A stretch of DNA of 64,000 bases, taken from the NCBI GenBank assembly GCA_000146045.2, contig BK006945.2, forward strand, positions 320,001-384,000, read 5' to 3'. The notes under the pieces are model-generated. The model saw only the letters and a program-made list of their open reading frames with translations, ran no database searches and had not been told where the DNA came from. Both the position numbers and the translations under genes were made by a program. Source of the stretch: TPA_inf: Saccharomyces (lineage: Eukaryota). Positions 6,226 to 54,427 of the stretch are shown here, piece after piece; positions within the stretch are counted from its first letter, which is position 1; each line of letters starts with the position of its first letter.

Positions 6226-6512
6226 CCAATGCATTTACAATGGACATGCAAACATTTATATCATCTCTTTTTTTCTATATTCCTAAACCAAAAAGTTTTC
6301 CCCCTTAAAAGTATACATTTAATATCATAATGAGATAGACACTGTTTATATAATAAGAAATAATAGGTAGGATGGTGCCATCGTGAGCATATACATACCT
6401 ATAAATATTTACCTTATTTTTATTTTATTTTTCTCTTCCTCTCAGGAACAAAAGAAATACAACCGTTATTAATGTTATTGTCGTGGGACAGCTCCCCTTT
6501 TTTTTTATTTAC

Positions 6513-7415
6513 TTACCACAGATAGAAAAACATGAAAGCAGCACTTACAAATAGTATAATAGTGAAAGTTAATAACGTAATATTTTTGACCTTCTGCCAC
6601 CACATTATTTCTTTTATATTGACCGCTTTGCGCCTAAATTTATTACTGCTGCTATTTAGTTGGGAAGTTTTATCCACCAATAAAGAAACTCTTTCTTGTC
6701 TCTCCAAGAACTTGTCGATGTTATCGTTCATTATCTGGATGACGTCCTTTATTTGGTCTTCGGTGGCATCCCCGATGTCACTTATAGTGTTCTGACCATT
6801 CCCATTACTAGATTGGCCATTTCCAGAACTATTTAAAGTTTGGTTACGGTATTCGACCAGCTCTTCATGGAAAGAGTCTAGTATTTGACCTACATGCGAA
6901 CTTAAAAGTTCGTTTGTAGCGTTGGACTCGTATTCCTGCAGCCCACTTAGTATCCTGATGGGCAAAATCTTGGGCATATCTACTAATGTGAAGCAAACGT
7001 ACACAGTTTTGGGGTCATGGTCATCCGTGGAGTAGAAACAATCGAATCCGTCGATGAGATTCATTGACATCTTGGTAACTTTGTTCCCCTTGATCGGAAC
7101 TACTTTGGGTAATACCATATCCATGATCAAATTATGGAAAATGACCGGCGTTATCTGCTCGTTTGCTGAAGTTATTGTACCATAGTTTTCGTTTTTCTGG
7201 AACGGCTGGAAACAACTAGATATTGTTTCACCATTTTTTATAACTTCCACATAACTTACTAAGACCATATGCAAAATCAAGCAAAATGGAACGTTAGTCT
7301 ACTGAATGTAACATAGTAAAATTATGGCATGGGGGGATGAGCATTCGCATAATCCCTTTTTTAAACATTTGTTAATTGTGTAGAAATATTTATACATACC
7401 ATTAAAGCGTTTCAT
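6513..7415 (-). CDS. NYV1: Vacuolar v-SNARE (longin/synaptobrevin-like), spliced: exon1 7400..7415 (ATGAAACGCTTTAATG), exon2 6513..7258; product begins MKRFNVSYVEVIKNGE
   Basis: The ORF track gives only exon 2 (6513..7280, with a TTG pseudo-start). On the minus strand there is an upstream ATG at 7415-7413 followed 16 nt later by GTATGT (7399-7394). A GACTAAC branch-like site sits at about 7293-7299 and a TAG acceptor at 7261-7259. The spliced reading restores the known MKRFNVSYVEV N-terminus. The C-terminal hydrophobic TM anchor (IILFVSAAFMFFYLW) is typical of SNAREs. Confidence 0.85.
7259..7399 (-). other. NYV1: Spliceosomal intron of NYV1 (141 nt, GTATGT...GACTAAC...TAG)
   Basis: The canonical yeast 5' splice site GTATGT begins 1 nt after codon 5. 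The 3' TAG lies 34 nt downstream of a GACTAAC branch-like sequence. Confidence 0.8.
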
Positions 7416-28180: not shown

Positions 28181-29005
28181 GCTCCTTCTTGAGTCCTTCG
28201 TACTTATTGTCTTTTCAGCGTCGTGTTACAATGAAACGTTTTAGCATATTGAATTTCGATGGAAGTTCAAATGTTTTATGCACCGAAATGAAATACTAGA
28301 GCAAAGAGATGTTAGTGAAAGCACCAGCTAATATAGCTCTTTCAAATTTACGTGAAAAAGTTATGTGTGGCAATATAAATCTATAGCAAGAGTGGCTTCT
28401 ATAAAACATTTTTGACAAGAAATAAAATTCAGATACCGTTGTAGTCTTGAGAAATCATTGTGCTCACATCGATTAACTTCGAGCAACATAAATCATGCTA
28501 TCATCATTAAAATAAAGTGGAAGTATTAAGAACAGATATAATAGCACGAGAAAAAACTCGTTCAACTAAGTCTAGACACACCTCCTGGTGTTATTTAGTC
28601 CGTTCTCTTAACAACCAAAGCCTACGAGCTCTCAAACAGCTCTTTTGTTTTAACTTCCTATAGAACTGAATGGGAAACTTGCATCTTGAAGAAAATTTTT
28701 CTCTTTAAATATCTGACTGAAGTATTGATCCCTTCAAAAAAAAAAAAAAAGAGAGTTGGTTACCCATATGGGAATAATATTTCTTAGGGCTAATTGACAA
28801 AGGATTGCTAACAGAAAATGCAAAGGACTAATAACTTGAATCATTTTTATATCAGGTTTATATAGGTATACGTTCAGTCTAATTAATAATTTATAGTTTA
28901 CAGTAGTTTTTTACAGTAGTTTTTTTTTTTTTTTTTCAGTTCCATGATTTTTTTGTTCCTTTGATTCGTGTAGTAAACCTCCTCTTCTTGGTTTTCACGA
29001 TATAC

Positions 29006-32000: not shown

Positions 32001-35000
32001 TCCACCGAAGGGCCTCTCTTCTGTTCCTTTTTAATAGGACCCCCTTTATTTGCTTTGATCCACTCTATAATGATATCAAAAACGAAAGCGTTCCCTGTCT
32101 CCTTTGCATTTTCAAGCTTCTTCAATAATTCATTAATGAATAACTCAAATCTAGAATATGACTCGATAAATGAAGAATCAAAAATTCGACTGGAATTGAA
32201 GTGTACGAAAAACGAAGATAAGGTCGATTTTGCATCTAACAAGATCTTTTGTTGTTCTGAAGTTGCTGAGTATTTCGAAATAACAGACAAGGTCTGTGCG
32301 GCATAGTCTAACAAAGAAGGCAGCCACTTTTCAAACAATCTGACATTATCTACATTCGCTTTTAATGAAGAATGAACAATATCGCCCTTTAAGCAAGTAA
32401 AGTGTTCTAGGTCTAACATCATACCATTAATCTTACAGTAATCATTCGTGAACTCTGATAGAGGGTGACGAACTGTAATCAGGGAAAACATCAAACTCTG
32501 TGCGAGTGCCATACCTCTTTCTATAGCAGCAACAGGGATATCATCACTTGGATTCGATGCAGCGCTTCTCAGCTTGGGTAAAAGGTCAAGGATTTTGAAA
32601 AAGAATGCGTCTGACGAATTTAAATATTCATTATTGAAAGGGGCAATGTTTGCCAAAATAGTTGTTGTAGAAGATTGAACTTTTTGAATGTCTTCCCTAA
32701 AATTGACTTTTAAACCGATTCTTCTCAATTCTTTCAATGCATCACCTAAAAGTTTACTTTTTTGAGTCTTCAAGTATGCCAACCTCTTTTTGTTCTCCTT
32801 TGTATATACATTAGGGGTTTCCTTACGTAACCTTTCAGCTTCAGCATAAAAGTCCGATGCTAAATCTGCGAAGTTAGGGAATTCCTGTGATGATATCTTT
32901 TCCAAGTAGGAGTCCATGTTACTTGCTACCGTGTCAATATTCCTTAATGGCGCAGCTCTCATACTCCAAGTAGAAATTTCTTTCACCAAATTTTTCGAAG
33001 CCTCTAAGTTGGGGTCTTCGTAAAAATGTTGTTTTAAAGTAGGGAGTTTTAGTTTATTTTCGTTGGAATACAAAAGACCGGCCTCAATAATGGTTTTCGC
33101 ATCCCCATTTAGCAAATCACGGTATTTTCTGACAATTTTGTAAAGGTTGTTATGAGACTTACGAGAACTTTGTTTCAGGGCATCAACGTTAACATCTTTC
33201 CAACTGGCTAAAAGAATTATATCGTCAATTTCTTTTTCCAGACTCTTTTTTCCATTCGTAATCCGCTCATCAATTAATGGTTTGAACTGATAATAGAATT
33301 TTATAGTATTATGGAGCAAGCCCGCTATCTTCGAGCTCCTCAATCCAATTAGTTGAATGTGCTTGTAGAATGCTTTTACAAGATCTAGCCTGGCGTTGAA
33401 TTCGCCCAATGTACTCTTACTAAAAAATAAGTTAAGTGAGCTTACCAAAAGTGTAGCGTTAGGGGCCGTTTCCTTCTTTTCACTAACAAAATTTGAAATG
33501 ACAATTGACTCGTACAAATAAAACCACCATTTTCCAATAGATTTTCTGGTTTTTGCGTCTTCCGAGTTGAAAAGACCTTTCCAGGTGCGTAATTCTAGTT
33601 TTCTCCATGAAACTATCAAATCTGTAATCAGTTTAACGGTGTTATTCAGGGATACTTCCGAGGAAGCGTATTTTTCCCATTCAGCTAGGTATGTATATAT
33701 TTGTTCGATCTTTTGAAGCTGTCTTGCTAAGGGTGTTTTAATGGGGTAGTTTAAAAATTCTTGGGAAACTCGATATAATTCTTTGAGGGTGGCATGTTCT
33801 GGCCACTGCTTCAACAATTTCAAGACTGACTTAAGCACAGTTTCAATGATATCACCTGCTTTTTGAAACTCCGGAATAGAGAAATCGTGGTAAAAATCGA
33901 TATTACCAAAAACTTCCGTGTTTTTGAAAGATTGTGTTTCTGCATCAAGTGTATTAATCACAGCAGACAACGATCCGCTTTTCAACTCTTCTATCCTGGT
34001 GTTTTTTAAATCTTCACTCAAAATTGTTGTTATTATCGCACCGCTCTTCAACTCAGAAGAAAAGTTGGCGTCATGATCTTTGTCAAATACCGAGATATAT
34101 GTGTCGGCAAGCTTGAAATAGATGTCATCAAGATTTTCAGGACTCGAAATATCTTTTTCATTAGTTACCAAAGCTGTGTCCTCATAATCTGGAAACAGCT
34201 TTCTAAAGTCTGCCTCGTAATCATCTGAATTATCATTGAATTTGAACATATTTGACTTTTCGTTTTCCTCCTGCTCCTGTCTGAAACGTCTCACAGACCA
34301 TCTTGAATACAGAGTATACAAAGCAGCCTCAAAAATTTCCAGTAAATTTGTATCCCTCTTATGGAACTTAAACAGCGTCAAGAAGTACATCAAAACCTTT
34401 TCAATCGAAGTATCTTCCATATCACCCTTTTTGAAGAACCTTGACAGCTCATGATAAGCGCTTAAAACATTCTCTGCGCATGAAATATTGATAGGGTCCA
34501 TACTCCATAAAGGAGAAATTTGGAATGATGCTCTATCCTTAGATTTTTGAAGCTTCAATAAATCAAAGCCAAAGTTGATACTGTAAATATATCCCGCGAG
34601 GATATCATTTAAATCAGCAAATTTTGAATAACCGCTTTCGAGACGATTCAAAAAATGTGCACTATTTTGTTGGAGCATTTCTAATCTACGATCCGATTGA
34701 TCTGAATTGCACTTGTAGGAACTCACTAGCTCTTTTATTTGACGAGAACTCATAGTTGACGACAAAAATGCCATCCATTCATCAAATAAAGAGTCAATAG
34801 ACATGCCTGTACGATATACCCTAGGGGATTGAGGTGCGTCGTCATCGCTTATGGTATTGATAAGTTTTTCTGTGAAAATCTCCTCATCGCCACTGATTAC
34901 TTTACGAACATTTCTCCAACTTTTCATTAGGTTTTGAGAAAATGTCTTTGTCTTCAAAAATAAATCATATAAAACGTAATCGTGTATTGCCGGATCATAG

Positions 35001-38000
35001 GGAGAATCTGGGACGAATAGCAGAAGCAAACCTGTACCAAATGTGATCCAAGCTTCTCCCAGTTCTTCTAATGATTTCGAACTTTCAGCCAAATCTAGAG
35101 CGGGAAAGATGTATTCTGCAAAAGTCACGCGTGTCTCTGAAGCAGTTTTTTCTTCTATGAGAGAGCAAAGTTCTTTCAAAGTCAATTTCAAGCAGTCCCC
35201 GCCGACGTGAATATCAATAACTTTTCTGAGCCATGACAGTAACATATTTTTATAGTACTCCATTTGGCTCTTAAGTAGGTTAGGTGAACACTTGATAGTG
35301 GAGGAAAGTAGCAATTCTGCGTCACTAATAGATTGTTTGATCTGATTTCCCGAAAATGATTTCAAATTATTAGATTTACGAACGACATCTTCGAGAAACT
35401 GGGATGAAAATATGGTAGAAGTAAAGGAAGTCAATTTAGCATTTTTTTCTGTCCAAAGAACATCAAAGATAGGCGGATAATTGTATTTGTTGGTAATAAG
35501 TTTTGTAAGTTTTTGCGTGGCTAAAGAAGAAGCGGGAGCAAGTTCTTTTATTAGCTCGGCTGTGTCAACTGAGAAGGTATATCTGATCAAATTGTCAAAT
35601 TCGTCAGCAAAATAATGTTTTCTTTTGTTTAAAAACTTATTTGAAATTAGTTCCAATTCATTTATACCATCTTCTAACTTTGATAGCAAGAGATTAAACT
35701 CACTTAATTTATTATTCAACACATCATCATTTAGCAACCGGAAAACGTCCATCAAATCCTTAATGGAATTGTATGATTCAGAAAATTGGAGCAGACGTAC
35801 TTTGTCAAATTTTTCAGATAAATTAATGAGCTTTTCGAAAGCTAGCCAGCTGTTGGAGGTTGTCGGATAATTTTTTCTGAATATATCCCATAGTAAAGTT
35901 ATGGAGTGGCCCCTCGACAACTGTAAAACATCGGTAAATTCCAAATTGATGTTAAGGAAGGGAGTTATCTCAATGTCTGATTTGGATTTTACGGACGCAA
36001 TCCAGCTATCTATCAACTCCTTATATACTCTTAGACGTGCTTCATCCTTTGTAACGGCGGTTTCTAATGCTGCAATTACAATTACCAGTAAATCCCAATA
36101 ATATTGATATTGGTTGGAGCCGCAAAATAAACTTTCCGTCTTAAGGTTTTCAGACATTACTGTTAAAATATTGTAGAGAATACAGAATATTGGAATGCGA
36201 GGAATATTCTTCAAATGGCGACCGTTAAAGGCAGCCGCAGATAATTCAATATACGTCAGTTCGTCAATTTTACCATGAGTTGATTTTTCATTGATTAATT
36301 TGAGAGCGTTCAAAGAGTTGAGTAGCAGACGTAAACTTGATAATAAGTATAACGACTCTGGAGATTTGATCTTATCTGAATACTTGCTGACTGTTGGAAG
36401 AACATATTCGTTCAAGGTAAGCGAGACAGTTTCCTCTGTCAATTGCTTATCATGCAGCCCCAAAGCCTTCTGGAATTTTAGGTTTGCAGGTTTGTATAGG
36501 TTATTAATCTTTTCTAAGACACCCATATCAGTCAAAAATGTTATAAAAACATAAAGCCTTTCTGCGATCTTTTTTTCTGAGTACTCCGTGCAATTCAATA
36601 CATTATTGGCCCATTTACCAACTTCCCCTAAATGGGAAATCGGAATAACAGCAGCAAGAGATTCTTCAATTGGTTCTTCGTCAGATAATAATAAAATATC
36701 ATGTACTTGTGCAAATATGCATGGTCTGCTTAAATAGGATGGAACATAGTGTTTTAATGGTATCGACATATCAGGTTCATTTAGTTTTATTTTTTTGATG
36801 CCATCATCAATAGAAACAAAGTCTATATTCTCTCCAAGTTCAAAGCCTAGGGTGAGGCGATCGAAGGCTGTAGAACGACTGTGCAATTCGTCGATATAAA
36901 TCTCCACACCTCTGTTTCTCATAGCTCGGGATAATTCACCATATTTTGGATCCATGGTCAAAAATAATCTGAAGTTAGGGTGGGGTTTGAGAACCCTTGG
37001 TTGGCCATCTTCTTGGCTACATTCATTGATGAGCAGCGACCCGTCTATCTCCAATAGAGAGTTCAGTCTATCAAGAACAGAAGGAGAACAAAGATTAGCA
37101 TTATCTAAGATTAGCCAATGGCCCTTTTCAACTGCTTTGACCAACATGCCATCAAACCATTCAAATTTAACCGAAGCTTCCTTAGTGATGATTTCAGTCA
37201 TTTTTTCAATATTCATACTCATAGTTTTTAATAGGGGATGCCCTTCTAAGTGCGAAAAGAACCTATTAAAACGATTTCTGAAATCTTGGAATTTCTCAGG
37301 TGTGACGATATTATTGAGCAAATATTTCAATAAGTTCAAACCTTCCATGATTGCGGTAGCATTTGGTGAGAGCTTCATATTCATCGAGATTATTTCTCTT
37401 ACGATATTTGTTAACTCCTCAGTGATATATGATATTTGTCTAGTCAAATCAACTTGTTCATAACCACCAAGGATATCCATACTATCTATATCACTATTCA
37501 TGGAAAACACGTCTACTCTGGGACCCAAGATTGAAGCTAAAAATCTTATCGTTTCCGTTTTACCGGAGTTTGAGGGCCCAACAAGTACCAACGGCCAATT
37601 ATTGTTGATTGCTTTCAAAACAGATTCATAAACGGCGACATTGCACTCTAATGGGAAAAGATTCTGGGTAATTGGATAGCGGTAATGGGGATTTCTTAGA
37701 GCTACCTCGTTGTTAATTTGAACATAGTCTTCTGTAAGTTTGAAAAAGTTCTCTTTAGTTGAGAATTTACCAAAAATATCTTCAATGAGAAGCTGTGCTT
37801 TATTCTTATCGCTGATAGTACGGAACCTCTGCTTAACGATTATATCAACAAAGTCAAACACGTCCACATCTTCGCAAATCGAATATTGGTTGAGTAACTT
37901 TAGCCAACGCAATGTATCTCTCAAATTGAACTCCCATGGTGAACCAGAATTACCCCAAAGTTTTCTTTTACAGACTTGATCCTCTAAAGTAGACATTAAC

Positions 38001-41000
38001 TTAATCATTTTCGCGATGATATCTGGCTCAATACTTGGATATAAGTGTTTTGCAATCAAAAGGAGATCATCAGATGTAAGCATGTCAATAAATACCACGC
38101 TAAATCGATTAACGAAAGATTTAGGAAGACCTTTCCTACCACCACCTTGATACTGAGGATTTTGAGCAGCAAAGACCAGAAAATTGGGGTGGCAGGAAAA
38201 CGATATGTCCAACTCGGGGATATACGCTTCGCCTCGATGATCTAAACAGGCATTCAACCCTTCTAGGACGGATTGGGAGGCTAAATTCATTTCATCTAAT
38301 AAAACCCACTCACCTTTCTTCATTGCTCTTAAAAACGGAGCATCGTGCCATAAAAATTCACCACTTCGCTCACCAGGAGCGTCTGCACCGAAAAGATCTA
38401 CTAGATCCGTTTGTTCAGACAAATTGATTCTTGTAAGCTTATTTCCTGTAATATTGGCAAGAGCGGTGATTAAACTTGTTTTACCAACACCTGGACTACC
38501 TTCAAGTAAAATTGGCTTGTGTACTTGCATAGCCCGTACAACCCTTACTAAGTTTGAGGCAGTAGTGGGGGCGGTTAAGTTAAAGGATGAAGACTGAGCA
38601 TCTGGAAATCTTGGTATTTTGAACATTCCGACTTGTAATTCATCCTGAGTCACAATAATTTCGTTCGTTTCAATTTGTTGTAGTTCCAAATCGTCACCAC
38701 ATAGTTTCAATAGTTGTATAATACATTCTGTTCTAAGTGACTTTAAATCATTTTCGTTTTCAGCTAAGTAAGCAGTGTTATTTGTACCAAGGGCGTCAAT
38801 AAAAACCATTGAGGCACCTTGAATTAAGGCAGTTGACTTGTTCTGTATTTTCGGAAACACTTTATTAATAAATTCAACCCATGCAAGTATGTCACGTAAA
38901 GAAATGACACCACTTGTTGCATTTCCGCCTCCCAGCTTCTTGCCAAACCATTCAGAGAATTTCACAATTGGATTAGCAAGATCTTTCAAGTCCTCTAAAA
39001 GCCTTGAGGATACGATCATGTTTACATCGTTGAAATCTTCCATGGATGGTACCCATATTTCAGTAAATCTATTTCTTAACGCTGGAGATAATTCTTTTTT
39101 ACCGTAATCTCCACCAGGGTTCATGGTTGCGAAGAATTGAAAGTTTTCTGAAGCCGTTACAAGGCTATCGGATGAACCCTGTTCTGCTAACAACAAACTC
39201 CTTTCTGGCTCCAAAACACTATTTAGTCTTTCAAGAACGGAATCATCTGCTAGCGATATTTCATCAAGTAGAAAAAAATTTCCCGTCCTCATAGCTTGAA
39301 TCAGAGGCCCGTCACTCCATTCAAATAAAACATTCAAACTATCCCTCAGCTTTTGTATTTCCAGTTGAACATCTTCGGCTATATTTTTATTATCTGACTT
39401 AGAATATAGCTGTAATAACTCTTTCAAGTCTACATCTTGGTCATTAGCAATATTCAATGCTGTTTTTAAGGATTTTATTAGCTTATATTGAATTTCAGAC
39501 CTGTTACGAACAGGTCTTTGAGCACCTAATATGTCTCCAGTTTCTGTGTTTTGATGGGCATTTAGTGTGATCAGTTCTCGACCCATGAATTGCGCCAATA
39601 ATTGGCAAATTGTTGTTTTGCCGCACCCAGTTTCACCTACCAGTAGTACTGGCTCCTTATTCTTTAAACAACTAGAAACTAAGACGGATAGTCGGCGCAT
39701 TCCTTTTGTCCAAGTAACAGAGCCAATGGCTTCTAAGGATTTATCTTCCAGACTTGCATAATATTGGTCCATATCTAATTTAACTTTCATTACTTTTTCT
39801 AAAGTCTTTTTGACTGTAACTTTTTCTTGTGGAGTTCTGCACCTTTCTGCAAGAAGCATATAGCCACTGGCAGCAAGCTGCTCATATCCCACTGCGTCCC
39901 TTAAAGCCCAGCGGAAAAGATCACGTAGAGTTGCAAAACTATTTTTCTGTTCGAACAACCTTGAAGCGGAACGTTCGATGGATAATTGGCGGTATACTTC
40001 AACGATTTTCTTTGCATATGATGGGGCAATTTGGCAGCGCTCACGTAGGATAATTTCTAATTCATCTTGCGGAATATCGTCGAAGTGCAACTCCAGAAAA
40101 CGATTCCTAAAAGCTCTTGAAAGAATTTTACGGCCACCGTATATCCCAGGTGGATTCTGGGTAGCAAAAAGAAGGAAATCAGGATGAGGATGTACAACTT
40201 CTTGTGTTTCTGGAATAAAAAGTTCTCTGTTATCGTCAAGTAACCTATTTAAGGCTTCTAAAACATCGGTTGGGGCAAGATTTAATTCATCCAAAACAAT
40301 CCAATATCCTTTTCGTAGTGCCTCGACTAAAACACCTTCCTTAAACGACAGCTTTCCGGTATCATCGGTAACATATGTACCTAAATATTCCTGTAAATCT
40401 GTATGCTCATGGTTATTTATACGGACAAACTTATGGCCCGTTATATCCGCAAGATATTTGATCATACTGGTTTTTCCCGATGAAGTTGGACCTTGAATAA
40501 GCACAGGAAATCTTTTGCCTGATGTAGCTCTTACCAAATTCATCATATTCTTTTCAACAAAAGGCGTAATGATATAGTGAGCTTGTTCTTGAATTGTATT
40601 AGGGCCCTTTTTCATCCAATAATGCTTAAACTGAACATAATCTGGTCCTGGAGAGGGAGGTGTCTGTGACATGATTGACTTGACATTTTTTAGCCTCCCC
40701 AATGTGAATTTTTCTATTACTGGCTTCAGAATGGCCTCAGATTTTTGGTCCAGTAAAGTCAAAAAACTCATACAGAATCCATCATACAGGGAACGGCGTA
40801 GACCGTAGATATGAATAATATCAGTAACATAAAGCAATGTACGCGTCAGGGTACGGATACTAAAGTGTGGTTTTTGGTTTGAGCCATCAACTATAGTATT
40901 GTTATCGGAGAGTTTTTTGGCTTCAAGGTAAAGTTCAGCGATGTCATTTCCTACCCATTCATCGCTGACGCTGTACTTTCCAATATATTTATCAATTATG

Positions 41001-43738
41001 GAAAGCAAATCAGTAATATCACGTTCCGGAGAATGTACATATATTTCGGTAAATCTTGATCTGATACCCATAGGTAAGTCTCTTTTACCAACATCAGTAG
41101 CGGGGTTCATACAAGCAAATATTCTAAAATCGGGGTGAGCTTTTATAGGCTCAGCGTCACCCTTTTCTGAAAGAAGAATACTACGAGAATCAGGCTCGGT
41201 GAGAAGGTCAGAAATACTTTCTAAGGTATCTGCGGTTGCTAAATTCACTTCATCGAGCAATAGCCACTCCCCAGCCCTGATAGTCTTTACCAAAGAACCC
41301 TCGACAAAATTGAAGACAAACGAGTTTTCAATAGAGCTAGACTGGGCCTCAAACTTCTTCACTGAGTCATTGAAGTCAGCCCATTTGTCAAGTAACAATT
41401 TTTTTTCATGAGTATTGAGTCTTCTTTTCTTCTTCTTTGCATTTTCGTTTTCATTTTCAGTGTTTGTAATTTTTAATATGCTTTGAGCCATTTTGTACGC
41501 TTCGTTCCAAAGTTTAACAACGTTCTTCCATTGATTCTTGTTGAAGCACCTATGTAGCATCTTGTGAAACTTCTCGTTCTTCTTTAAGGAAAATGTAGCA
41601 TTAAAAAGAGTTTCAAAATTTTCTTGTATAGGAACTGCAACTGTTTTAGAATTTACGGGTTTGTACCCACCAAGAAGATCACCAGTTTCTGTTTGTTGTG
41701 AAACATTGATTACCGTTAATTTTTTTGCTAACATCTTAGCAAGTTGTTGAACGACTGTAGTTTTCCCGGTACCCGTTTCACCGACTAGTAAAACAGGTTC
41801 AGTCATCTGTATACAAACAGAAATCTGTTCCATTAGTCTTAAAGAATGATTCGTAAATGCGAACAATGTGCTGTTCATTGATTTTTTTTGTATATTTAGC
41901 TTTTCCTTAAGTAATACGGCTCTTCCAATTTTAATGCTATCATCAAGGTTTTCCAAAGTGGGCACATGTTGGGTCAAAAATAACGAAATCCTTGAGGAAG
42001 CAATGTCTAATGACTCGCCGATTGCTTGTATAATAGGTTCCAAAGCTTTGAATTCTCCAATAGCGCCAGCGAAACAGTCGGCGGCTTCGGAGAAAATACT
42101 GTCGTAGACAGAAGACTGGATTAGTTGGTCAGGTTTGTTGATGCCATTGTTTTTGAATAGGATGTCTAACCTTTCGCACAGCTTAATTAAATCTCTTACA
42201 GATACAACTCTTGTGTGTGCCCCCTTGTTCAATGAAATGAACTTGGTGTTCATATAAATACTTTTGACGTTTTTGTATGAATCGATTAGTTTGGGGATAA
42301 GGTTGGTCAAAATGGGAAACTTTTGGGCTAAAATGTGTGTCAAATCCTCTTCGCTAGGTTCCTCTAATTCAATAACATTCCAGATTCTCATACCAATCAT
42401 ATTCAAGTTATAGATCTTATTGGAACTATCCTTCTGATGATCTTCGTTTATTCTAACAGTTGATATTAACTGGAAACCATTTGCAGCCTTTACAGTCTCT
42501 CCTCTGGATGGAATGGTTAGTTCGCGCTTTTCTAAAAGCGATAAAAGTATTGATAAAACATCTGTAGGAGCTTTATCTATGTCTTCTATAAGTACCCATC
42601 TCCCTTCTTTGACCGCGGTAGCGAGAACACCAGCTCTCCATTCAAACGTGCCTGGCTTGTCACCAGAGGTATAAGTACCAATCAGTAACTTGGCATCAGT
42701 TTGTTCACCTAAATGAATTTTCACAATGGAGTCATGGCAACCCATATATTTACTTAGCTCATTGATTAAAAAGGTTTTACCGGATCCCGCTTTTCCAATG
42801 AGCATTATTGGAGTTGAATTTTGAATCTTTCTCCCGAGTTGACGAAGAGAGGAAACCGTTTTATGAGTAGGGACAAAGGTTAATGGGTAGAATACTTTGT
42901 CGTGGATAGTGTGGACCTTAGGGACGATAACGCCACAGATTGACGCGACCTTAGTACTCAAATCCTGAGGCTCAATAATGAAGTAGCTAGATTTTTTTTC
43001 TATAGTGAAACATTCTGGAACACTGGGTAGTTTAGAGAAATTTGCACATCTCTTAGCTTCGTTCAGTTCGAGGAAGCTGTAATCAATTCCAGAATCGCCC
43101 TCAAAATGGCCCAACAATGAATCGCGTGATTTTATATAAGTGTCGAGCATATCGTTTAATGTTTTTTCTCCCATGTCTAAGTATAAAGATAAAACCTTTA
43201 ATGCTAGAAATATAACAACCTGATTTTCTTGTTCTTTGGTGAGTAAATCCACAAGTTGGTATAAAATGTCGGGTTGAATGAAGCGTGCAAATACTTCTTT
43301 ATTGTGATATAGTAACCTATAGTATGCTAATAGTATTTTAAACATGTCGGAATCCTTTTGTGTGGATGGATTTTGAAGAATAGTGATGAAATGATCATTC
43401 TCTTTATCTAAATAGTCTTCAATTAATGGCATTGCAACGGGAAATATTGTAATTATACTTGCCAACTTTTCAATTACAAGAACGTAATCTTTTTTTTTGG
43501 AGTCCTTTATCCAACGTGCCACTATCTCTAAAAAAATATGTTTGTAAAGGAAAACATGACCAGTGATGGAACGGCTATGTAGTATAGTTCCTGCTAAATT
43601 GTCTAAATTCTCAGAAGTTGATTCCTTGTTGCTAAAGTGGAAGGGCGCTTCAATAGCATCAGAGGGAAAAGCAGAATTGAAGAGAATTAACCTTTGGTTA
43701 ACTACGTCTAAATCTAACAAAATTCTATCCTGGGACAT
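29006..43738 (-). CDS. MDN1: Midasin/Rea1: giant AAA+ ATPase of 60S ribosome biogenesis; six tandem AAA protomers, long helical linker, D/E-rich region, C-terminal MIDAS domain
   Basis: The 4910-aa single ORF has six Walker A motifs (GKAGSGKT, GETGTGKT, GPTSSGKT, GETGCGKT, GSPGVGKT, GPSNSGKT). It has a roughly 600-aa Asp/Glu-rich segment and a C-terminal vWA/MIDAS domain with the DxSxS motif (ALDDSKSMS). Confidence 0.97.
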   Translation of the reverse strand: MSQDRILLDLDVVNQRLILFNSAFPSDAIEAPFHFSNKESTSENLDNLAGTILHSRSITGHVFLYKHIFLEIVARWIKDSKKKDYVLVIEKLASIITIFPVAMPLIEDYLDKENDHFITILQNPSTQKDSDMFKILLAYYRLLYHNKEVFARFIQPDILYQLVDLLTKEQENQVVIFLALKVLSLYLDMGEKTLNDMLDTYIKSRDSLLGHFEGDSGIDYSFLELNEAKRCANFSKLPSVPECFTIEKKSSYFIIEPQDLSTKVASICGVIVPKVHTIHDKVFYPLTFVPTHKTVSSLRQLGRKIQNSTPIMLIGKAGSGKTFLINELSKYMGCHDSIVKIHLGEQTDAKLLIGTYTSGDKPGTFEWRAGVLATAVKEGRWVLIEDIDKAPTDVLSILLSLLEKRELTIPSRGETVKAANGFQLISTVRINEDHQKDSSNKIYNLNMIGMRIWNVIELEEPSEEDLTHILAQKFPILTNLIPKLIDSYKNVKSIYMNTKFISLNKGAHTRVVSVRDLIKLCERLDILFKNNGINKPDQLIQSSVYDSIFSEAADCFAGAIGEFKALEPIIQAIGESLDIASSRISLFLTQHVPTLENLDDSIKIGRAVLLKEKLNIQKKSMNSTLFAFTNHSLRLMEQISVCIQMTEPVLLVGETGTGKTTVVQQLAKMLAKKLTVINVSQQTETGDLLGGYKPVNSKTVAVPIQENFETLFNATFSLKKNEKFHKMLHRCFNKNQWKNVVKLWNEAYKMAQSILKITNTENENENAKKKKRRLNTHEKKLLLDKWADFNDSVKKFEAQSSSIENSFVFNFVEGSLVKTIRAGEWLLLDEVNLATADTLESISDLLTEPDSRSILLSEKGDAEPIKAHPDFRIFACMNPATDVGKRDLPMGIRSRFTEIYVHSPERDITDLLSIIDKYIGKYSVSDEWVGNDIAELYLEAKKLSDNNTIVDGSNQKPHFSIRTLTRTLLYVTDIIHIYGLRRSLYDGFCMSFLTLLDQKSEAILKPVIEKFTLGRLKNVKSIMSQTPPSPGPDYVQFKHYWMKKGPNTIQEQAHYIITPFVEKNMMNLVRATSGKRFPVLIQGPTSSGKTSMIKYLADITGHKFVRINNHEHTDLQEYLGTYVTDDTGKLSFKEGVLVEALRKGYWIVLDELNLAPTDVLEALNRLLDDNRELFIPETQEVVHPHPDFLLFATQNPPGIYGGRKILSRAFRNRFLELHFDDIPQDELEIILRERCQIAPSYAKKIVEVYRQLSIERSASRLFEQKNSFATLRDLFRWALRDAVGYEQLAASGYMLLAERCRTPQEKVTVKKTLEKVMKVKLDMDQYYASLEDKSLEAIGSVTWTKGMRRLSVLVSSCLKNKEPVLLVGETGCGKTTICQLLAQFMGRELITLNAHQNTETGDILGAQRPVRNRSEIQYKLIKSLKTALNIANDQDVDLKELLQLYSKSDNKNIAEDVQLEIQKLRDSLNVLFEWSDGPLIQAMRTGNFFLLDEISLADDSVLERLNSVLEPERSLLLAEQGSSDSLVTASENFQFFATMNPGGDYGKKELSPALRNRFTEIWVPSMEDFNDVNMIVSSRLLEDLKDLANPIVKFSEWFGKKLGGGNATSGVISLRDILAWVEFINKVFPKIQNKSTALIQGASMVFIDALGTNNTAYLAENENDLKSLRTECIIQLLKLCGDDLELQQIETNEIIVTQDELQVGMFKIPRFPDAQSSSFNLTAPTTASNLVRVVRAMQVHKPILLEGSPGVGKTSLITALANITGNKLTRINLSEQTDLVDLFGADAPGERSGEFLWHDAPFLRAMKKGEWVLLDEMNLASQSVLEGLNACLDHRGEAYIPELDISFSCHPNFLVFAAQNPQYQGGGRKGLPKSFVNRFSVVFIDMLTSDDLLLIAKHLYPSIEPDIIAKMIKLMSTLEDQVCKRKLWGNSGSPWEFNLRDTLRWLKLLNQYSICEDVDVFDFVDIIVKQRFRTISDKNKAQLLIEDIFGKFSTKENFFKLTEDYVQINNEVALRNPHYRYPITQNLFPLECNVAVYESVLKAINNNWPLVLVGPSNSGKTETIRFLASILGPRVDVFSMNSDIDSMDILGGYEQVDLTRQISYITEELTNIVREIISMNMKLSPNATAIMEGLNLLKYLLNNIVTPEKFQDFRNRFNRFFSHLEGHPLLKTMSMNIEKMTEIITKEASVKFEWFDGMLVKAVEKGHWLILDNANLCSPSVLDRLNSLLEIDGSLLINECSQEDGQPRVLKPHPNFRLFLTMDPKYGELSRAMRNRGVEIYIDELHSRSTAFDRLTLGFELGENIDFVSIDDGIKKIKLNEPDMSIPLKHYVPSYLSRPCIFAQVHDILLLSDEEPIEESLAAVIPISHLGEVGKWANNVLNCTEYSEKKIAERLYVFITFLTDMGVLEKINNLYKPANLKFQKALGLHDKQLTEETVSLTLNEYVLPTVSKYSDKIKSPESLYLLSSLRLLLNSLNALKLINEKSTHGKIDELTYIELSAAAFNGRHLKNIPRIPIFCILYNILTVMSENLKTESLFCGSNQYQYYWDLLVIVIAALETAVTKDEARLRVYKELIDSWIASVKSKSDIEITPFLNINLEFTDVLQLSRGHSITLLWDIFRKNYPTTSNSWLAFEKLINLSEKFDKVRLLQFSESYNSIKDLMDVFRLLNDDVLNNKLSEFNLLLSKLEDGINELELISNKFLNKRKHYFADEFDNLIRYTFSVDTAELIKELAPASSLATQKLTKLITNKYNYPPIFDVLWTEKNAKLTSFTSTIFSSQFLEDVVRKSNNLKSFSGNQIKQSISDAELLLSSTIKCSPNLLKSQMEYYKNMLLSWLRKVIDIHVGGDCLKLTLKELCSLIEEKTASETRVTFAEYIFPALDLAESSKSLEELGEAWITFGTGLLLLFVPDSPYDPAIHDYVLYDLFLKTKTFSQNLMKSWRNVRKVISGDEEIFTEKLINTISDDDAPQSPRVYRTGMSIDSLFDEWMAFLSSTMSSRQIKELVSSYKCNSDQSDRRLEMLQQNSAHFLNRLESGYSKFADLNDILAGYIYSINFGFDLLKLQKSKDRASFQISPLWSMDPINISCAENVLSAYHELSRFFKKGDMEDTSIEKVLMYFLTLFKFHKRDTNLLEIFEAALYTLYSRWSVRRFRQEQEENEKSNMFKFNDNSDDYEADFRKLFPDYEDTALVTNEKDISSPENLDDIYFKLADTYISVFDKDHDANFSSELKSGAIITTILSEDLKNTRIEELKSGSLSAVINTLDAETQSFKNTEVFGNIDFYHDFSIPEFQKAGDIIETVLKSVLKLLKQWPEHATLKELYRVSQEFLNYPIKTPLARQLQKIEQIYTYLAEWEKYASSEVSLNNTVKLITDLIVSWRKLELRTWKGLFNSEDAKTRKSIGKWWFYLYESIVISNFVSEKKETAPNATLLVSSLNLFFSKSTLGEFNARLDLVKAFYKHIQLIGLRSSKIAGLLHNTIKFYYQFKPLIDERITNGKKSLEKEIDDIILLASWKDVNVDALKQSSRKSHNNLYKIVRKYRDLLNGDAKTIIEAGLLYSNENKLKLPTLKQHFYEDPNLEASKNLVKEISTWSMRAAPLRNIDTVASNMDSYLEKISSQEFPNFADLASDFYAEAERLRKETPNVYTKENKKRLAYLKTQKSKLLGDALKELRRIGLKVNFREDIQKVQSSTTTILANIAPFNNEYLNSSDAFFFKILDLLPKLRSAASNPSDDIPVAAIERGMALAQSLMFSLITVRHPLSEFTNDYCKINGMMLDLEHFTCLKGDIVHSSLKANVDNVRLFEKWLPSLLDYAAQTLSVISKYSATSEQQKILLDAKSTLSSFFVHFNSSRIFDSSFIESYSRFELFINELLKKLENAKETGNAFVFDIIIEWIKANKGGPIKKEQKRGPSVEDVEQAFRRTFTSIILSFQKVIGDGIESISETDDNWLSASFKKVMVNVKLLRSSVVSKNIETALSLLKDFDFTTTESIYVKSVISFTLPVITRYYNAMTVVLERSRIYYTNTSRGMYILSTILHSLAKNGFCSPQPPSEEVDDKNLQEGTGLGDGEGAQNNNKDVEQDEDLTEDAQNENKEQQDKDERDDENEDDAVEMEGDMAGELEDLSNGEENDDEDTDSEEEELDEEIDDLNEDDPNAIDDKMWDDKASDNSKEKDTDQNLDGKNQEEDVQAAENDEQQRDNKEGGDEDPNAPEDGDEEIENDENAEEENDVGEQEDEVKDEEGEDLEANVPEIETLDLPEDMNLDSEHEESDEDVDMSDGMPDDLNKEEVGNEDEEVKQESGIESDNENDEPGPEEDAGETETALDEEEGAEEDVDMTNDEGKEDEENGPEEQAMSDEEELKQDAAMEENKEKGGEQNTEGLDGVEEKADTEDIDQEAAVQQDSGSKGAGADATDTQEQDDVGGSGTTQNTYEEDQEDVTKNNEESREEATAALKQLGDSMKEYHRRRQDIKEAQTNGEEDENLEKNNERPDEFEHVEGANTETDTQALGSATQDQLQTIDEDMAIDDDREEQEVDQKELVEDADDEKMDIDEEEMLSDIDAHDANNDVDSKKSGFIGKRKSEEDFENELSNEHFSADQEDDSEIQSLIENIEDNPPDASASLTPERSLEESRELWHKSEISTADLVSRLGEQLRLILEPTLATKLKGDYKTGKRLNMKRIIPYIASQFRKDKIWLRRTKPSKRQYQIMIALDDSKSMSESKCVKLAFDSLCLVSKTLTQLEAGGLSIVKFGENIKEVHSFDQQFSNESGARAFQWFGFQETKTDVKKLVAESTKIFERARAMVHNDQWQLEIVISDGICEDHETIQKLVRRARENKIMLVFVIIDGITSNESILDMSQVNYIPDQYGNPQLKITKYLDTFPFEFYVVVHDISELPEMLSLILRQYFTDLASS
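29820..31620 (-). repeat. MDN1: Asp/Glu-rich low-complexity coding region of MDN1 (GAA/GAT/GAC-rich); generates spurious Ser-rich antisense ORFs
   Basis: The protein segment runs from ~SPQPPSEEVDDKN... to ...NIEDNPPDASASL and is >50% D/E. The plus strand is strongly TC-rich. The ORF-track antisense ORFs 30018..30203, 30567..31196 and 31281..31529 are poly-Ser artefacts. Confidence 0.85.
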
Positions 43739-45330: not shown

Positions 45331-45809
45331 TGTGATCATATTCAAAGTTGAGCAGACATATATAGTTATTACATTTCATACGGTTCACATGAGTTTTATT
45401 AAGTAATTACGTTAAGAAACAACATGATAAAAGTAATGATTTCGTATTGCTTTCCTATTTTCTGTATTTAAGCGAACAATAATAATGCACCTTTTCAATA
45501 TCTGAATATTAAAATATCGTGAAATTGGGTTCAGGATGTACCAAACTTGATGATAGCTGAAGCACCATAATCCTATTTAAAGAAGTACCTGTTATCCGTC
45601 AGTAATTACCAGAACAAGTTAATTTTAAGTTTAATCTAAAAAAGTATTGCATGCGGCATTAAAAGACAACATAAAACATCTAAACGGTAAAGTATGATCG
45701 ATAATTCTCCATAATAGTTCTGTTATTTATAATCTCCAGCACTAATAAATGCTATACGTATATTTGTACACAATATAATTTCAGAATTTATATTGCTACC
45801 ATGACTGTC

Positions 45810-46134
45810 TGAGAATTGGGGGAATAACTTGATAATTGTTGGGATTCCATTGTTCGTAAACGCAATAATATTAGGTATATAGAAGATACTAAATGTTCTC
45901 TCCGAGGATATAGGAATGCTCACAATGGAATCGATATATTTCTACATAATAGTATTGAGATTATTCCTCTTTTAGTTTTATATAATTCATTATCCTATTA
46001 CATTATCAATCCTTGCATTTCAGCTTCCATTAGACTTAATGACTGTTTCTCAATTTTTATGTCATCTTCCTGGACCTCATGTGATACTATACCAGTAGCA
46101 TGAATACTACTGAATCGATGATACTTTAGAGTTT
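45810..46134 (-). mobile_element. Solo Ty1/Ty2 delta LTR (diverged, about 325 bp), reverse orientation, about 100 bp upstream of SNR6
   Basis: The plus strand reads TGAGAATTGGGGGAATAACTTGATAATTGTTGGGATTCCATTGTTCG...TATAGGAATGCTCACAATGGAATCGATATATTTCTACATA...CATTATCAATCCTTGCATTTCAGCTTCC...TTTCATTGCAACA. This is collinear with the reverse complement of the delta consensus from ...CCCATTTCTCA back to TGTTGGAATAGAAA. Confidence 0.75.
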
Positions 46135-46204
46135 CATTGCAACAGTTTCAACACAGCCTGGCATGAACAGTGGTAAAAGTATTTCGTCCACTATTTTCGG
46201 CTAC

Positions 46205-46212
46205 TATAAATA
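46205..46212 (+). promoter_or_regulatory. TATA box (TATAAATA) at -30 of SNR6
   Basis: Read directly from the sequence. The spacing to the U6 5' end at 46235 matches the known SNR6 upstream TATA element. Confidence 0.55.
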
Positions 46213-46234
46213 AATGTTTTTTTCGCAACTATGT

Positions 46235-46346
46235 GTTCGCGAAGTAACCCTTCGTGGACATTTGGTCAATTTGAAACAATACAGAGATGATCAGCAGTTC
46301 CCCTGCATAAGGATGAACCGTTTTACAAAGAGATTTATTTCGTTTT
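46235..46346 (+). ncRNA. SNR6: U6 spliceosomal snRNA gene (RNA polymerase III transcript, 112 nt)
   Basis: GTTCGCGAAGTAACCCTTCGTGGACATTTGGTCAATTTGAAACAATACAGAGATGATCAGCAGTTCCCCTGCATAAGGATGAACCGTTTTACAAAGAGATTTATTTCGTTTT. It contains the invariant ACAGAGA box and AGC triad and ends in a T-run Pol III terminator. Confidence 0.92.
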
Positions 46347-46466
46347 TTTTTTATCATCGAGTGAAGTATCGTGACTTGTACATTTGAAGATACCCAGCGT
46401 ACAGCAGTGTATCTTTATCTTCCTGTATGATATAGATAACTAACATCTCGAATAGAAAATTGTCTC

Positions 46467-46477
46467 GCGTTCGAACC
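46467..46477 (+). promoter_or_regulatory. SNR6 downstream B-box (TFIIIC site) about +234 relative to the U6 5' end
   Basis: GCGTTCGAACC matches the GGTTCGANNCC B-box consensus. It lies about 120 bp downstream of the U6 terminator, which is the unusual extragenic B-block position known for yeast SNR6. Confidence 0.6.
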
Positions 46478-46666
46478 TAAGCCTTTGCTATCGGTTGAAC
46501 ATAGAAGACCGCGTGATTCATTTTAGTGCGTAAGAATGCTATTAGTACTTATGTGCTTTATGAATGTGAATATTGTTACAGCTATGCAATGGTACGATCA
46601 TACTCTGAACGATCCATTTAAATTATATATGTCAAACAGAAGAGAAAGGTTTTTTTATTGAAGATT

Positions 46667-48124
46667 TCACAGAAAATCAATCATTTTGCAATATTCCTTC
46701 GTCCCAGAGAAGGTTTCGGCTTTTACAGCAACGAGAATGATTCTTCCATTATTTGTACCTAGCTTCCACATGGATTTCGATAAGTGTAGTTTCAAACCAT
46801 GAACGCAATTCAAAACTTTCAAATTGGTGCAATCCAAGACCCTCCCTTTACATTTGGAGTCGTTAACTAATGAGAAAATATTACAGCATTTTGCGCCATT
46901 TACCGTCAAGTCACAAATGGAGACACATGCAGGAATAATTAAGTGGGATTCAACTTGCATTTGACTGTCACGAAGTTTGACCTTATATTCGGACAGATCA
47001 ATTTTAAAATCTGGGTTTTCCAATAAAACATCCGAGAACTTGTTTTCAAACAACACTGCAGCCTCTCTGGATAGGTCTACATGAACAGTCTTATTCTTTT
47101 TGTTGAATATTATTTTGCACTGGTTAGAGTGTAATTGGAAAATAAGATCGTGCGAAACTGTATCGATATAAGGCCTTTGGTATTTTAACATGCTCCAGTG
47201 TCTTTCAATACAATGTTTTACCTTTTTTGTTGGAGGTTCATATTCATCATTGTTGCCTGAATCAGTCTCGGTTTTATGAAATCCAGTAGCGGCTTTTTCA
47301 CCCTCAGTTCCATTGAGACAACTGCTTACCGCTAAAGATTGGTTTCCGGTATGAAGTGATGTTAACCTTTCAATGGTTACACCCTTCTTGGAGACGCTAT
47401 CAAGAGCTATGCAAACTTCTTGACAATTAGTTAAGGGATTATATATAATTTTTGCCCGCACTAATTCCTGCTCCAACCTGTTGAGACGGTAATAACGACA
47501 CTCTTTTATCAGAGATGCGGTTCTTTCCTCAGACAGTTCTAATTTGGAACCGCCCAGTAAAGATAATATATCTCGGAAAAATTCTGGGGACCTTGCAATA
47601 TATGAGGGTGGTAATAAAGGTGGAAAGCCCGGCTTCTTATTTGACTCCCACTTCTCAATTTCCTCATAAGATATGCGAGAAATCGTTTCAAAATAGTTCA
47701 ACCGGTTCCCTTCTTCATGGAATAATGATTTTGGTACCTTAAAGGGAACACCTCCAATATTAGTGAAGTGGTAGTCGTATTCTTTTATGAGTTTAACTAA
47801 CTTGGGTAACTGAAAATATAATGCGTCCGCGAAAAGACAGGTAAATTGTACTTCGTTCTTAATATCGGGAAAATAACCTTGTAAATGTCTGTATATTATG
47901 ATGAACACGTCTTCCGATCTATCAACAAATAGAATCGTATTTTTATCGTGCGTATTGAAGAATTGGGTGAAAAAATTGGGCGCATCCGAATTCAATGTAG
48001 CACCTGAGATCTCAAATAGCTTTTGGCCAATCCTAATCTTGAAAACTTCATGGTTTGGTAAAAGCTCGGGGGTAGTTTCTAACTCTTTTGTATAAACCAC
48101 GATCTCGCCCTTTTGGCCAGACAT
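46667..48124 (-). CDS. Uncharacterised protein with N-terminal KCTD-like BTB/T1 (potassium-channel tetramerisation-type) domain
   Basis: The 485-aa ORF (YLR108C by position) has an N-terminus FKIRIGQKLFEISGATLNSDAPNFFTQFF...ILFVDRSEDVFIIIYRHLQGY that fits the BTB_2/T1 pattern (V.L.VGG..F......L......FF..........FIDRD...F..IL.YLR.G). Confidence 0.8.
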   Translation of the reverse strand: MSGQKGEIVVYTKELETTPELLPNHEVFKIRIGQKLFEISGATLNSDAPNFFTQFFNTHDKNTILFVDRSEDVFIIIYRHLQGYFPDIKNEVQFTCLFADALYFQLPKLVKLIKEYDYHFTNIGGVPFKVPKSLFHEEGNRLNYFETISRISYEEIEKWESNKKPGFPPLLPPSYIARSPEFFRDILSLLGGSKLELSEERTASLIKECRYYRLNRLEQELVRAKIIYNPLTNCQEVCIALDSVSKKGVTIERLTSLHTGNQSLAVSSCLNGTEGEKAATGFHKTETDSGNNDEYEPPTKKVKHCIERHWSMLKYQRPYIDTVSHDLIFQLHSNQCKIIFNKKNKTVHVDLSREAAVLFENKFSDVLLENPDFKIDLSEYKVKLRDSQMQVESHLIIPACVSICDLTVNGAKCCNIFSLVNDSKCKGRVLDCTNLKVLNCVHGLKLHLSKSMWKLGTNNGRIILVAVKAETFSGTKEYCKMIDFL

Positions 48125-48780: not shown

Positions 48781-49311
48781 ATGTCTGACTTAGTTAACAA
48801 GAAATTCCCAGCTGGCGACTACAAATTCCAATACATTGCTATCAGCCAAAGTGATGCTGACAGTGAATCTTGTAAGATGCCACAAACAGTTGAATGGTCC
48901 AAATTAATTTCTGAAAACAAGAAGGTTATCATTACCGGTGCTCCAGCTGCTTTCTCCCCAACCTGTACTGTCAGCCATATTCCAGGTTACATCAACTACT
49001 TGGATGAATTAGTTAAGGAAAAGGAAGTTGACCAAGTGATCGTTGTTACTGTTGACAACCCGTTCGCTAACCAAGCGTGGGCTAAGAGTTTAGGTGTTAA
49101 GGACACCACACACATCAAGTTTGCCTCCGACCCAGGCTGTGCTTTCACCAAATCCATTGGTTTCGAATTAGCCGTCGGTGACGGTGTTTACTGGAGTGGT
49201 AGATGGGCCATGGTTGTTGAAAACGGTATCGTTACTTACGCTGCCAAGGAAACCAACCCAGGTACCGATGTGACCGTTTCCTCAGTCGAAAGTGTCTTGG
49301 CTCATTTGTAG
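48781..49311 (+). CDS. AHP1: Thiol-specific peroxiredoxin, Prx5-type alkyl hydroperoxide reductase
   Basis: The 176-aa ORF has the peroxidatic Cys in the PAAFSPTCT context. Strongly biased codon usage indicates a highly expressed gene. The upstream TATATAAA is at 48670-48677. Confidence 0.9.
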   Translation: MSDLVNKKFPAGDYKFQYIAISQSDADSESCKMPQTVEWSKLISENKKVIITGAPAAFSPTCTVSHIPGYINYLDELVKEKEVDQVIVVTVDNPFANQAWAKSLGVKDTTHIKFASDPGCAFTKSIGFELAVGDGVYWSGRWAMVVENGIVTYAAKETNPGTDVTVSSVESVLAHL

Positions 49312-52927: not shown

Positions 52928-53768
52928 ACGTGTTTTTTTAATGTCCCTAACCACTCATTCTTACTTCTTTTTGATGTTTCTTTTTTTTATGGTACTCATA
53001 AAAGTATTTACGTATATAGTTGTATAGAGGAAACAAAAAAAAAAAGATAAAACTCAATTACAAAGTAAAGTGGACGTATTTCGATCATGATTTTTTTCTG
53101 TTTTAACCGCATTGGATTTTCTTGTAAAACTGGAAGAAAAAGGAAACTAAAAAGTCAAGAAAGACCTTTTTAAGACTCCAAGAACCGTCACTTATGGCGT
53201 ATTGTTTGTTTATCAGCACTTCTATCTTCGATAAAGGTTTGTCTGTCTTATATTGTTTACATTTCAAGTCTAATTCTGTGCTTTTACCGAAGAGGAATTT
53301 TCATAAATACGGAGAAAATATAAAAAAAAAGTAAATACAGAAAATAGAACAGTTGAAGCAGAAAAAGAGAACTTGCTAAATAGCTGTCTCACCCAGACAA
53401 GCGTATACTTACCACATTTAGTCTTTTGCAATCTCATTCTTGTTGAAGATAACTATTACATTCACGGACTGTGGCAGAAACTTCTCCTTAAGAAATTAGG
53501 AACTCATAAAAGGAATCAGCAGCTCTATGTAATATCAAAATCTTTTCTATTTTTTGTATTTATGCTCTCATTCATTAATTCTAACGGAGCTATTTATTAT
53601 AAACAGTGAAGATATAAACCATATGTCTAATAGAACAAATTTCAAAAAGTCTTCAATTTCGTGGATGTGGGAATGCATTTATTAAAAATAATGAATGGCA
53701 ACATACGACACCAAAATAGGAACACTTTCAGTACTATACAGAACTACGGATCTTAGTTTATTGAGTTT

Positions 53769-53960
53769 TGAGAAATAGGTTGATATGGAGACAATTTCTT
53801 AGCGTTATTAGAGGTTATAAGTATACAGAATAACCTACGAGTAGTCCTCAAGAAGATAAGACTCTGCAAAAGGTATCAATAATTTTACTTAATCATAGCA
53901 CTATTTCTTCTTTCGCTTTGTACAGCAGCTCATATATTCCATTACATTATCAATTCTTAC
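53769..53960 (-). mobile_element. Truncated, diverged delta-like (Ty1/Ty2/Ty4-family) LTR fragment in reverse orientation, abutting the sigma element
   Basis: TGAGAAATAGGTTGATATGGAGACAAT aligns to the delta rc TGAGAAATGGGTGAATGTTGAGATAAT. ...GTATACAGAATA...CCTCAAGAA... aligns to GTATACAGAATATACTAGAAGTTCTCCTCGAGGA. TCCATTACATTATCAATTCTTAC aligns to TCCTATTACATTATCAATCCTTGC. Similarity decays before the sigma insertion. Confidence 0.4.
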
Positions 53961-53998
53961 ATCGTAGCATAAAACACTAAGATTCAAAAATAGAAAAC

Positions 53999-54338
53999 TG
54001 TTGTATCTCAAAATGAGATACGTCAGTATGACAATACGTCATCCTAAACGTTCATAAAACACATATGAAACAACCTTATAACAAAACGAACAACATGAGA
54101 CAAAACCCGTCCTTCCCTAGCTGAACTACCCAAAAGTATAAATGCCTGAACAATTAGTTTAGATCCGAGATTCCGCGCTTCCACCACTTAGTATGATTCA
54201 TATTTTATATAATATATAAGATAAGTAACATCCGTGAGTTAATCTGATAAACCGTTTTGACAACTGGTAACTTCCCTAAGACTGTTTATATTAGGATTGT
54301 CAAGACACTCCGGTATTACTCGAGCCCGTAATAAAACA
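53999..54338 (+). mobile_element. Ty3 sigma solo LTR (340 bp) flanked by 5-bp target-site duplication AAAAC, 16 bp upstream of tRNA-Arg
   Basis: It begins TGTTGTATCTCAAAATGAGATACGTCAGTATGACAATACGTCA and continues through ...CCACCACTTAGTATGATTCATATTTTATATAATATATAAGATAAGTAACATCCGTGAG...CTCGAGCCCGTAATAAAACA, a near-identical match to the sigma consensus. AAAAC occurs at 53994-53998 and again at 54339-54343. Confidence 0.85.
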
Positions 54339-54354
54339 AAAACAATAAATCTTG

Positions 54355-54427
54355 TTCCTCGTGGCCCAATGGTCACGGCGTCTGGCTACGAACCAGAAGA
54401 TTCCAGGTTCAAGTCCTGGCGGGGAAG
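54355..54427 (+). tRNA. tRNA-Arg (anticodon ACG), 73 nt, intronless
   Basis: TTCCTCGTGGCCCAATGGTCACGGCGTCTGGCTACGAACCAGAAGATTCCAGGTTCAAGTCCTGGCGGGGAAG. The acceptor stem TTCCTCG/CGGGGAA has one G-U pair. The anticodon stem is TCTGG/CCAGA with loop CTACGAA. The T-arm is CCAGG-TTCAAGT-CCTGG. A downstream TTTTTTT terminator is at 54431-54437. Confidence 0.9.

Follow-up and report, generated by a model that had tools for sequence, protein, structure and literature searches.

As described in PMC9136082, the promoter of the yeast U6 snRNA gene, SNR6, combines a T7 element and a TATA box (at -30) with a box B that lies outside the gene, 202 bp from box A; the layout is credited there to Brow & Guthrie 1990 and Eschenlauer 1993. 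For the same gene, that account states that transcription can start from the TATA box on naked DNA without TFIIIC, that the extragenic box B is needed by TFIIIC on chromatin, where a nucleosome lies between the A and B blocks, and that published deletion and chromatin-transcription work has found the B block to be required at SNR6 (PMC9136082). Its drawing of the locus names the upstream repeat a "Ty1 solo delta element (YLRCdelta5)", and a -1 nucleosome is described there, citing Arimbasseri & Bhargava 2008, as covering the 5' end of the delta and repressing the delta's weak Pol II transcription (PMC9136082). De novo insertions of Ty1 have been reported at SNR6, among other genes (PMC3545840); Ty1 integrase has been located at SNR6 by ChIP, with targeting that depends on contact with the Pol III subunit AC40 (PMC7459421), and the integrase-Pol III complex has been described by cryo-EM (PMC10050235).

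The 64-kb stretch of DNA analysed here (the window) encodes a 404-aa Rex3 identical to that of S. cerevisiae S288C (NP_013208), which identifies the locus as the chromosome XII interval from REX3/YLR107W to YLR108C that contains SNR6. The flanking ORFs, and a snoRNA gene found just downstream of the giant MDN1-type ORF, are as follows.

28427-28511, minus strand: C/D-box snoRNA snR79 (Rfam, 86.1 bits, gathering score 55)
29006-43738, minus strand: MDN1-type AAA protein, 4910 aa
44116-45330, plus strand: RNase_T exonuclease, 404 aa (REX3)
46667-48124, minus strand: BTB-like protein, 485 aa (YLR108C-type)
48781-49311, plus strand: peroxiredoxin, 176 aa (AHP1-type)

Apart from the insertions described below, the order and spacing of REX3, SNR6 and YLR108C match those of related species. 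The segment is almost certainly the SNR6 locus with its composite Pol III promoter and an upstream solo delta of the Ty1/Ty2 group, left by integration and LTR-LTR recombination. All three features, the gene, its extragenic B block and the solo delta upstream, are already known from textbooks or publications on the reference yeast genome. The elements of the gene were located at the following positions, numbered in parentheses relative to the U6 start site.

46205-46212 (-30 to -23), plus strand: TATA box TATAAATA, read directly
46217-46223 (-18 to -12), plus strand: T7 stretch, downstream of the TATA box and ahead of the start site, read directly
46235-46346, plus strand: U6 snRNA gene SNR6, 112 nt, from direct reading and Rfam RF00026
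46255-46265 (+21 to +31), plus strand: intragenic A block TGGACATTTGG, read directly, its position taken from the published 202-bp A-to-B distance
46343-46352, plus strand: Pol III terminator, T10, read directly
46467-46477 (+233 to +243), plus strand: extragenic B block GCGTTCGAACC, the only copy in the window and the TFIIIC site according to the literature (PMC9136082)

A complete U6 gene had been placed at 46235-46346 in the preliminary description, and these coordinates proved exact: the U6 covariance model RF00026 matched 46244-46347 on the plus strand over its full length (model positions 1-105 of 105) with 79.2 bits, far above the gathering score of 44 (E=1.8e-18). The match is overwhelmingly beyond chance. 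The gene begins GTTCGCGAAG and closes ATTTCGTTTT (...CGTTTT), and the ACAGAGA box (46281-46287, +47 to +53), the AGC triad (46293-46295, +59 to +61) and the T-run terminator, all claimed earlier, could each be read directly. The first four T of the T10 run form the 3' end of U6, and the run is conserved in four species. U6 is 98-100% identical to that of S. cerevisiae in S. mikatae, S. kudriavzevii and S. eubayanus; the S. kudriavzevii gene differs only by T>C at +3 and A>G at +9 (L130 5850 and 5856), and by our reading of the 5' stem-loop both changes would keep its pairing (U-G to C-G and A-U to G-U).

Upstream, the TATA box lies at -30 as had been described, and TATAA is kept at this position in S. 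mikatae and S. kudriavzevii; the S. eubayanus counterpart is TTTAAATA. The T run at -17 to -19 is present in four Saccharomyces species. The A block is a weak match, with 6/9 of the specified bases of the tRNA A-box consensus TRGCNNAGTGG, and its conservation is uninformative because it sits in invariant coding sequence.

The TFIIIC B box had been described as lying not inside the gene but at +234, about 120 bp past the terminator. It was found at +233, or +234 when counted from the C according to the convention of the literature, and begins 114 bp after the last terminator T. The consensus GTTCGANNC occurs four times in the 64-kb window, where 5.3 occurrences are expected, and 0.37 copies of the 11-mer are expected with at most one mismatch, so the motif taken alone does not exceed chance expectation. 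The motif count was accordingly dropped as evidence and replaced by positional conservation. Orthologous loci of other Saccharomyces were fetched via their Rex3 homologues, and the B block, with the shared motif GCGTTCGA[A/G]CC, starts at the following distances from the U6 start site.

+233: S. cerevisiae
+232: S. mikatae
+231: S. kudriavzevii
+234: S. eubayanus

The offset is thus held within 3 bp over four species, and in an alignment of S. cerevisiae, S. mikatae and S. kudriavzevii the B block forms an island of identity amid an otherwise unalignable spacer.

Ty1 and Ty2 share the delta class of LTR. The repeat upstream of SNR6 belongs to this class, and its limits and flanks are as follows.

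45805-45809: CTGTC, left copy of a decayed 5-bp target-site duplication, read directly
45810-46144, minus strand: solo delta LTR of the Ty1/Ty2 family, 335 bp (YLRCdelta5 in the literature), from alignment and profile
46145-46149 (-90 to -86): GTTTC, right copy of the duplication, read directly

Read directly on the forward strand, the element begins TGAGA at 45810 and ends ...TTGCAACA at 46144; its reverse complement begins TGTTGCAATG and finishes AATTCTCA. It therefore has the termini TGTTG...TCA, and its 335 bp fall within the expected length of about 330-338 bp; the 5' end (TGTTG) faces SNR6. A reference LTR was sought by scanning metagenome contigs for an 18-mer of the element and comparing the element by BLAST with the loci returned. 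Dozens of delta copies with 73-82% identity were recovered on unrelated yeast contigs, many of them covering the query from 1 to 335. The LTR chosen as reference (L076:2167-2498, minus strand, 332 bp, metagenome contig ERZ1106949.1609) is preceded by a 1347-aa pol ORF (Pfam RVT_2, rve and gag_pre-integrs) and a polypurine tract, GGGTGGTA, and on its other side come a primer-binding site, TGGTAGCGCC, and a gag ORF to which Pfam TYA gives 773 bits; because these landmarks flank it, we regard it as the genuine LTR of a Ty1/Ty2 element. The arrangement pol, LTR, gag reflects a low-coverage (2.9x) Ty assembly collapsed onto a single LTR, and its gag looks chimeric, with what we take to be a Ty2-like N terminus and a Ty1-like remainder, presumably an assembly chimera of Ty1 and Ty2 reads.

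The SNR6 delta aligned with this reference from end to end, collinearly, with 257/323 ungapped columns identical (80%), at z=23.7 above shuffles. An nhmmer profile built from 21 independent deltas, none of them from the SNR6 locus, placed HMM positions 1-331 at 45810-46144 with E=1.8e-80. The match is overwhelmingly beyond chance. Of the preliminary description, which had a diverged delta in reverse orientation at 45810-46134, the identity, the orientation and the left end stood; the right end did not, since it lies 10 bp further on, at 46144, which leaves a spacer of 90 bp between the LTR and +1 of U6.

The delta had further been called a solo LTR, and nothing beside it speaks for a larger element: no gag or pol ORF was found in the 1.3-kb intergenic region, where the nearest ORFs are REX3 and YLR108C, and the delta is flanked by REX3 3' sequence and the SNR6 promoter, with no second LTR adjoining. 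Because no Ty coding sequence adjoins it, we conclude that the delta is a solo LTR. Recombination between the two LTRs of an element is the standard route to this state, and by this standard inference the internal region of one element would have been lost. The signature of a single element collapsed in place is not intact: the flanking pentamers, CTGTC and GTTTC, match at 3/5 positions, a decay that fits the approximately 20% divergence of the LTR. The decayed duplication neither proves nor contradicts loss by LTR-LTR recombination.

The delta was present at the same place in 14/14 S. cerevisiae chromosome assemblies examined, with 100% identity in most, 99.7% in L143 and 97.9% in L135, and also, at 100% identity, in two metagenome contigs; among these assemblies it is fixed. 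Four Logan short-read contigs carrying REX3 (L124-L127) end at window positions 45812, 45819, 46014 and 46015, positions that fall either 3-10 bp inside the delta or at the conserved core, and we regard these ends as probable assembly breaks induced by repeats or polymorphism, as expected of a repeat.

An orthologous delta was searched for in S. mikatae, S. kudriavzevii and S. eubayanus by blastn with a word size of 7, by local alignment against shuffles and with the delta profile. S. kudriavzevii gave no delta match by these methods (local alignment score 18.5, shuffle mean 18.8). The same searches found no orthologous delta by U6 in S. mikatae or S. eubayanus: in S. mikatae they returned just a delta fragment of 80 bp, about 840 bp upstream, and in S. 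eubayanus just a delta-like fragment of 107 bp (L146 14917-15023) at 450-550 bp upstream of U6. Since no orthologous copy was detected in the three other species, the insertion seems to postdate the split from S. mikatae. An ancient shared insertion had been suspected when the S. kudriavzevii sequence TTGTTCCAACAGTTCC aligned with the junction of delta and flank in S. cerevisiae; this was rejected, as TTGTTCCAACAGTTCC is the end of a different LTR, of a 371-bp family, with its other end at L130:5392.

Insertions at other positions upstream of U6 were found in several of the S. cerevisiae assemblies, each with a perfect 5-bp target-site duplication (positions are those of the duplication in the window and relative to the U6 start site).

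45801-45805 (-434 to -430): ATGAC, young delta, 95% identical to the reference LTR, in L135 (GCA_947369975.1)
46088-46092 (-147 to -143): TATAC, full delta nested in the old delta, in L138 (GCA_000977115.3) and four similar assemblies
46135-46139 (-100 to -96): CATTG, 371-bp LTR of another family, in L135

The two extra LTRs of L135 occupy 5692-6019 and 6360-6730 of that assembly's locus, flanking the old delta or nested in it; the nested delta of L138, at 5478-5814, is in the opposite orientation to the old one. Copies of the 371-bp LTR at 97% identity occur in L012 and L113, and we take this family to be Ty4 tau-like. Unrelated LTR ends were also located in the other species: one of the 371-bp family at -82 in S. 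kudriavzevii, two at -87 and -70 in S. eubayanus, and an LTR-end-like sequence, TTCCAATA, at -85 to -78 in S. mikatae. The spacer between REX3 and U6 is 4.27 kb in S. eubayanus (L146 11200-15470), swollen by LTR fragments, whereas that of S. cerevisiae measures 0.9 kb. Within the S. eubayanus spacer lie the delta-like fragment and three copies or fragments belonging to the 371-bp family, and its three short called ORFs (90-179 aa) gave no Pfam match. We conclude that the region upstream of U6 is a recurrent Pol III-upstream LTR target, and the earlier assignment of the site to the known class of Ty1 hotspots upstream of Pol III genes is strengthened by the polymorphic strain insertions and the independent LTRs of other species.

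The window holds a second cluster of LTRs upstream of a Pol III gene, in which a further LTR and a tRNA-Arg gene are preceded by two truncated delta fragments, both oriented like the SNR6 delta.

53431-53576: truncated delta fragment (delta profile, E=9.9e-09)
53770-53967: truncated delta fragment (delta profile, E=5.4e-14)
53999-54338: 340-bp LTR-like element, beginning TGTTGTATCTC and finishing AATAAAACA
54355-54427: tRNA-Arg(ACG)

The 340-bp element ends 16 bp before the tRNA gene and is probably a Ty3 sigma in its classic position.

Several other explanations of these features were considered. That GCGTTCGAACC at +233 is a chance motif, with the TATA box and the A block alone driving SNR6, would agree with the chance-level motif counts in the window and with the transcription from the TATA box without TFIIIC that is described for naked DNA (PMC9136082). 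It is nevertheless scarcely credible: the start of the motif stays between +231 and +234 in the four species, amid spacer that cannot be aligned, and the mutagenesis referred to in PMC9136082 shows the B block to be required. Positional conservation and published mutagenesis together refute it, and we retain GCGTTCGAACC as the B block of SNR6. With regard to the delta, recombination between two different Ty elements or LTRs, flanking a segment since deleted, would also leave a solo LTR; it would explain why the flanking pentamers do not match, and the LTRs that pile up side by side here in other strains would supply the substrate. The LTR is collinear and full length, however, with no visible chimeric breakpoint, an element diverged by about 20% is expected to lose one or two of the ten duplicated bases by mutation alone, and the order and spacing of REX3, SNR6 and YLR108C are otherwise those of related species. 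This origin is improbable, and collapse of a single element in place is the reading that we prefer.

Which element gave rise to the delta is a matter of label rather than mechanism. A Ty2, or an extinct Ty1-like subfamily, is a possible but rather unlikely source in place of Ty1 proper. Identity with the other full-length deltas recovered reaches only 73-82% in every case, and no copy is near enough for a subfamily assignment; the delta is 76-80% identical to the reference LTR adjoining a gag whose N terminus we take to be of the Ty2 type. Against this, the literature and the systematic name treat the element as Ty1, at least in the description of the locus in PMC9136082, and nothing in the sequence favours Ty2 either; on sequence grounds, the delta appears too diverged for an origin from Ty1 or Ty2 to be decided. 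A further idea is that an LTR at -70 to -100 of U6 is of use to SNR6, in which case selection, and not integration bias alone, would refill or retain the site. It was suggested by the presence of LTR ends 70-100 bp upstream in four species, from at least two unrelated families, and by the fixed and almost invariant S. cerevisiae delta. Such an LTR might, for example, contribute the sequence on which the regulatory -1 nucleosome is positioned, or might insulate SNR6 from transcription on the REX3 side. Integration bias explains the recurrence of LTR ends equally well, and we consider retention for SNR6 chromatin possible, though quite unlikely.

Taken with the literature, the features of the locus are consistent with the following course of events. 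RNA polymerase III transcribes SNR6, using a composite promoter in which the TATA box at -30 and the T7 stretch would place TFIIIB. TFIIIC would have to bind the weak A block (+21 to +31) and the consensus extragenic B block (about +234) together, and a positioned nucleosome between the two blocks would bring them near enough for this. An LTR retrotransposon of the Ty1/Ty2 group (copia-type) probably integrated 86-90 bp upstream of the U6 start site; the tethering of integrase to Pol III through AC40, which steers Ty1 to nucleosomal DNA on the upstream side of Pol III genes, would account for this choice of site. Its internal part would later have been lost by recombination between the two LTRs, leaving one 335-bp delta, oriented away from SNR6, that appears since to have diverged by about 20% from active LTRs.

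The analysis has value mainly as a control: a reading made without tools had placed a noncoding RNA gene, its dispersed promoter elements and a reverse LTR diverged by 20% to within 10 bp. The constant offset of the B block is a comparative addition, and a small further one is the record of independent LTR insertions, of different families and across strains and species, within a single 100-bp stretch upstream of U6. Together, the offset and the repeated hits illustrate known Pol III-directed integration and reveal nothing new.

Compared with SNR6 as described by Brow & Guthrie 1990 and Eschenlauer et al. 1993, the gene has the same sequence, neighbours and element positions; there is no difference, and the window contains that very locus. 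The same is true of the delta, which corresponds to YLRCdelta5 of Arimbasseri & Bhargava 2008 in its place, in its position on the Crick strand and in its 5' end, which lies under the -1 nucleosome by the SNR6 TATA box, again with no difference from the published element. With the solo LTRs upstream of tRNA genes, which derive from Ty1, Ty2, Ty3 and Ty4, the locus shares an LTR lying no more than about 100 bp upstream of where Pol III starts and, likewise, nested and polymorphic insertions with 5-bp duplications. It differs from them in its target, which here is a TATA-containing snRNA gene, not a tRNA gene.
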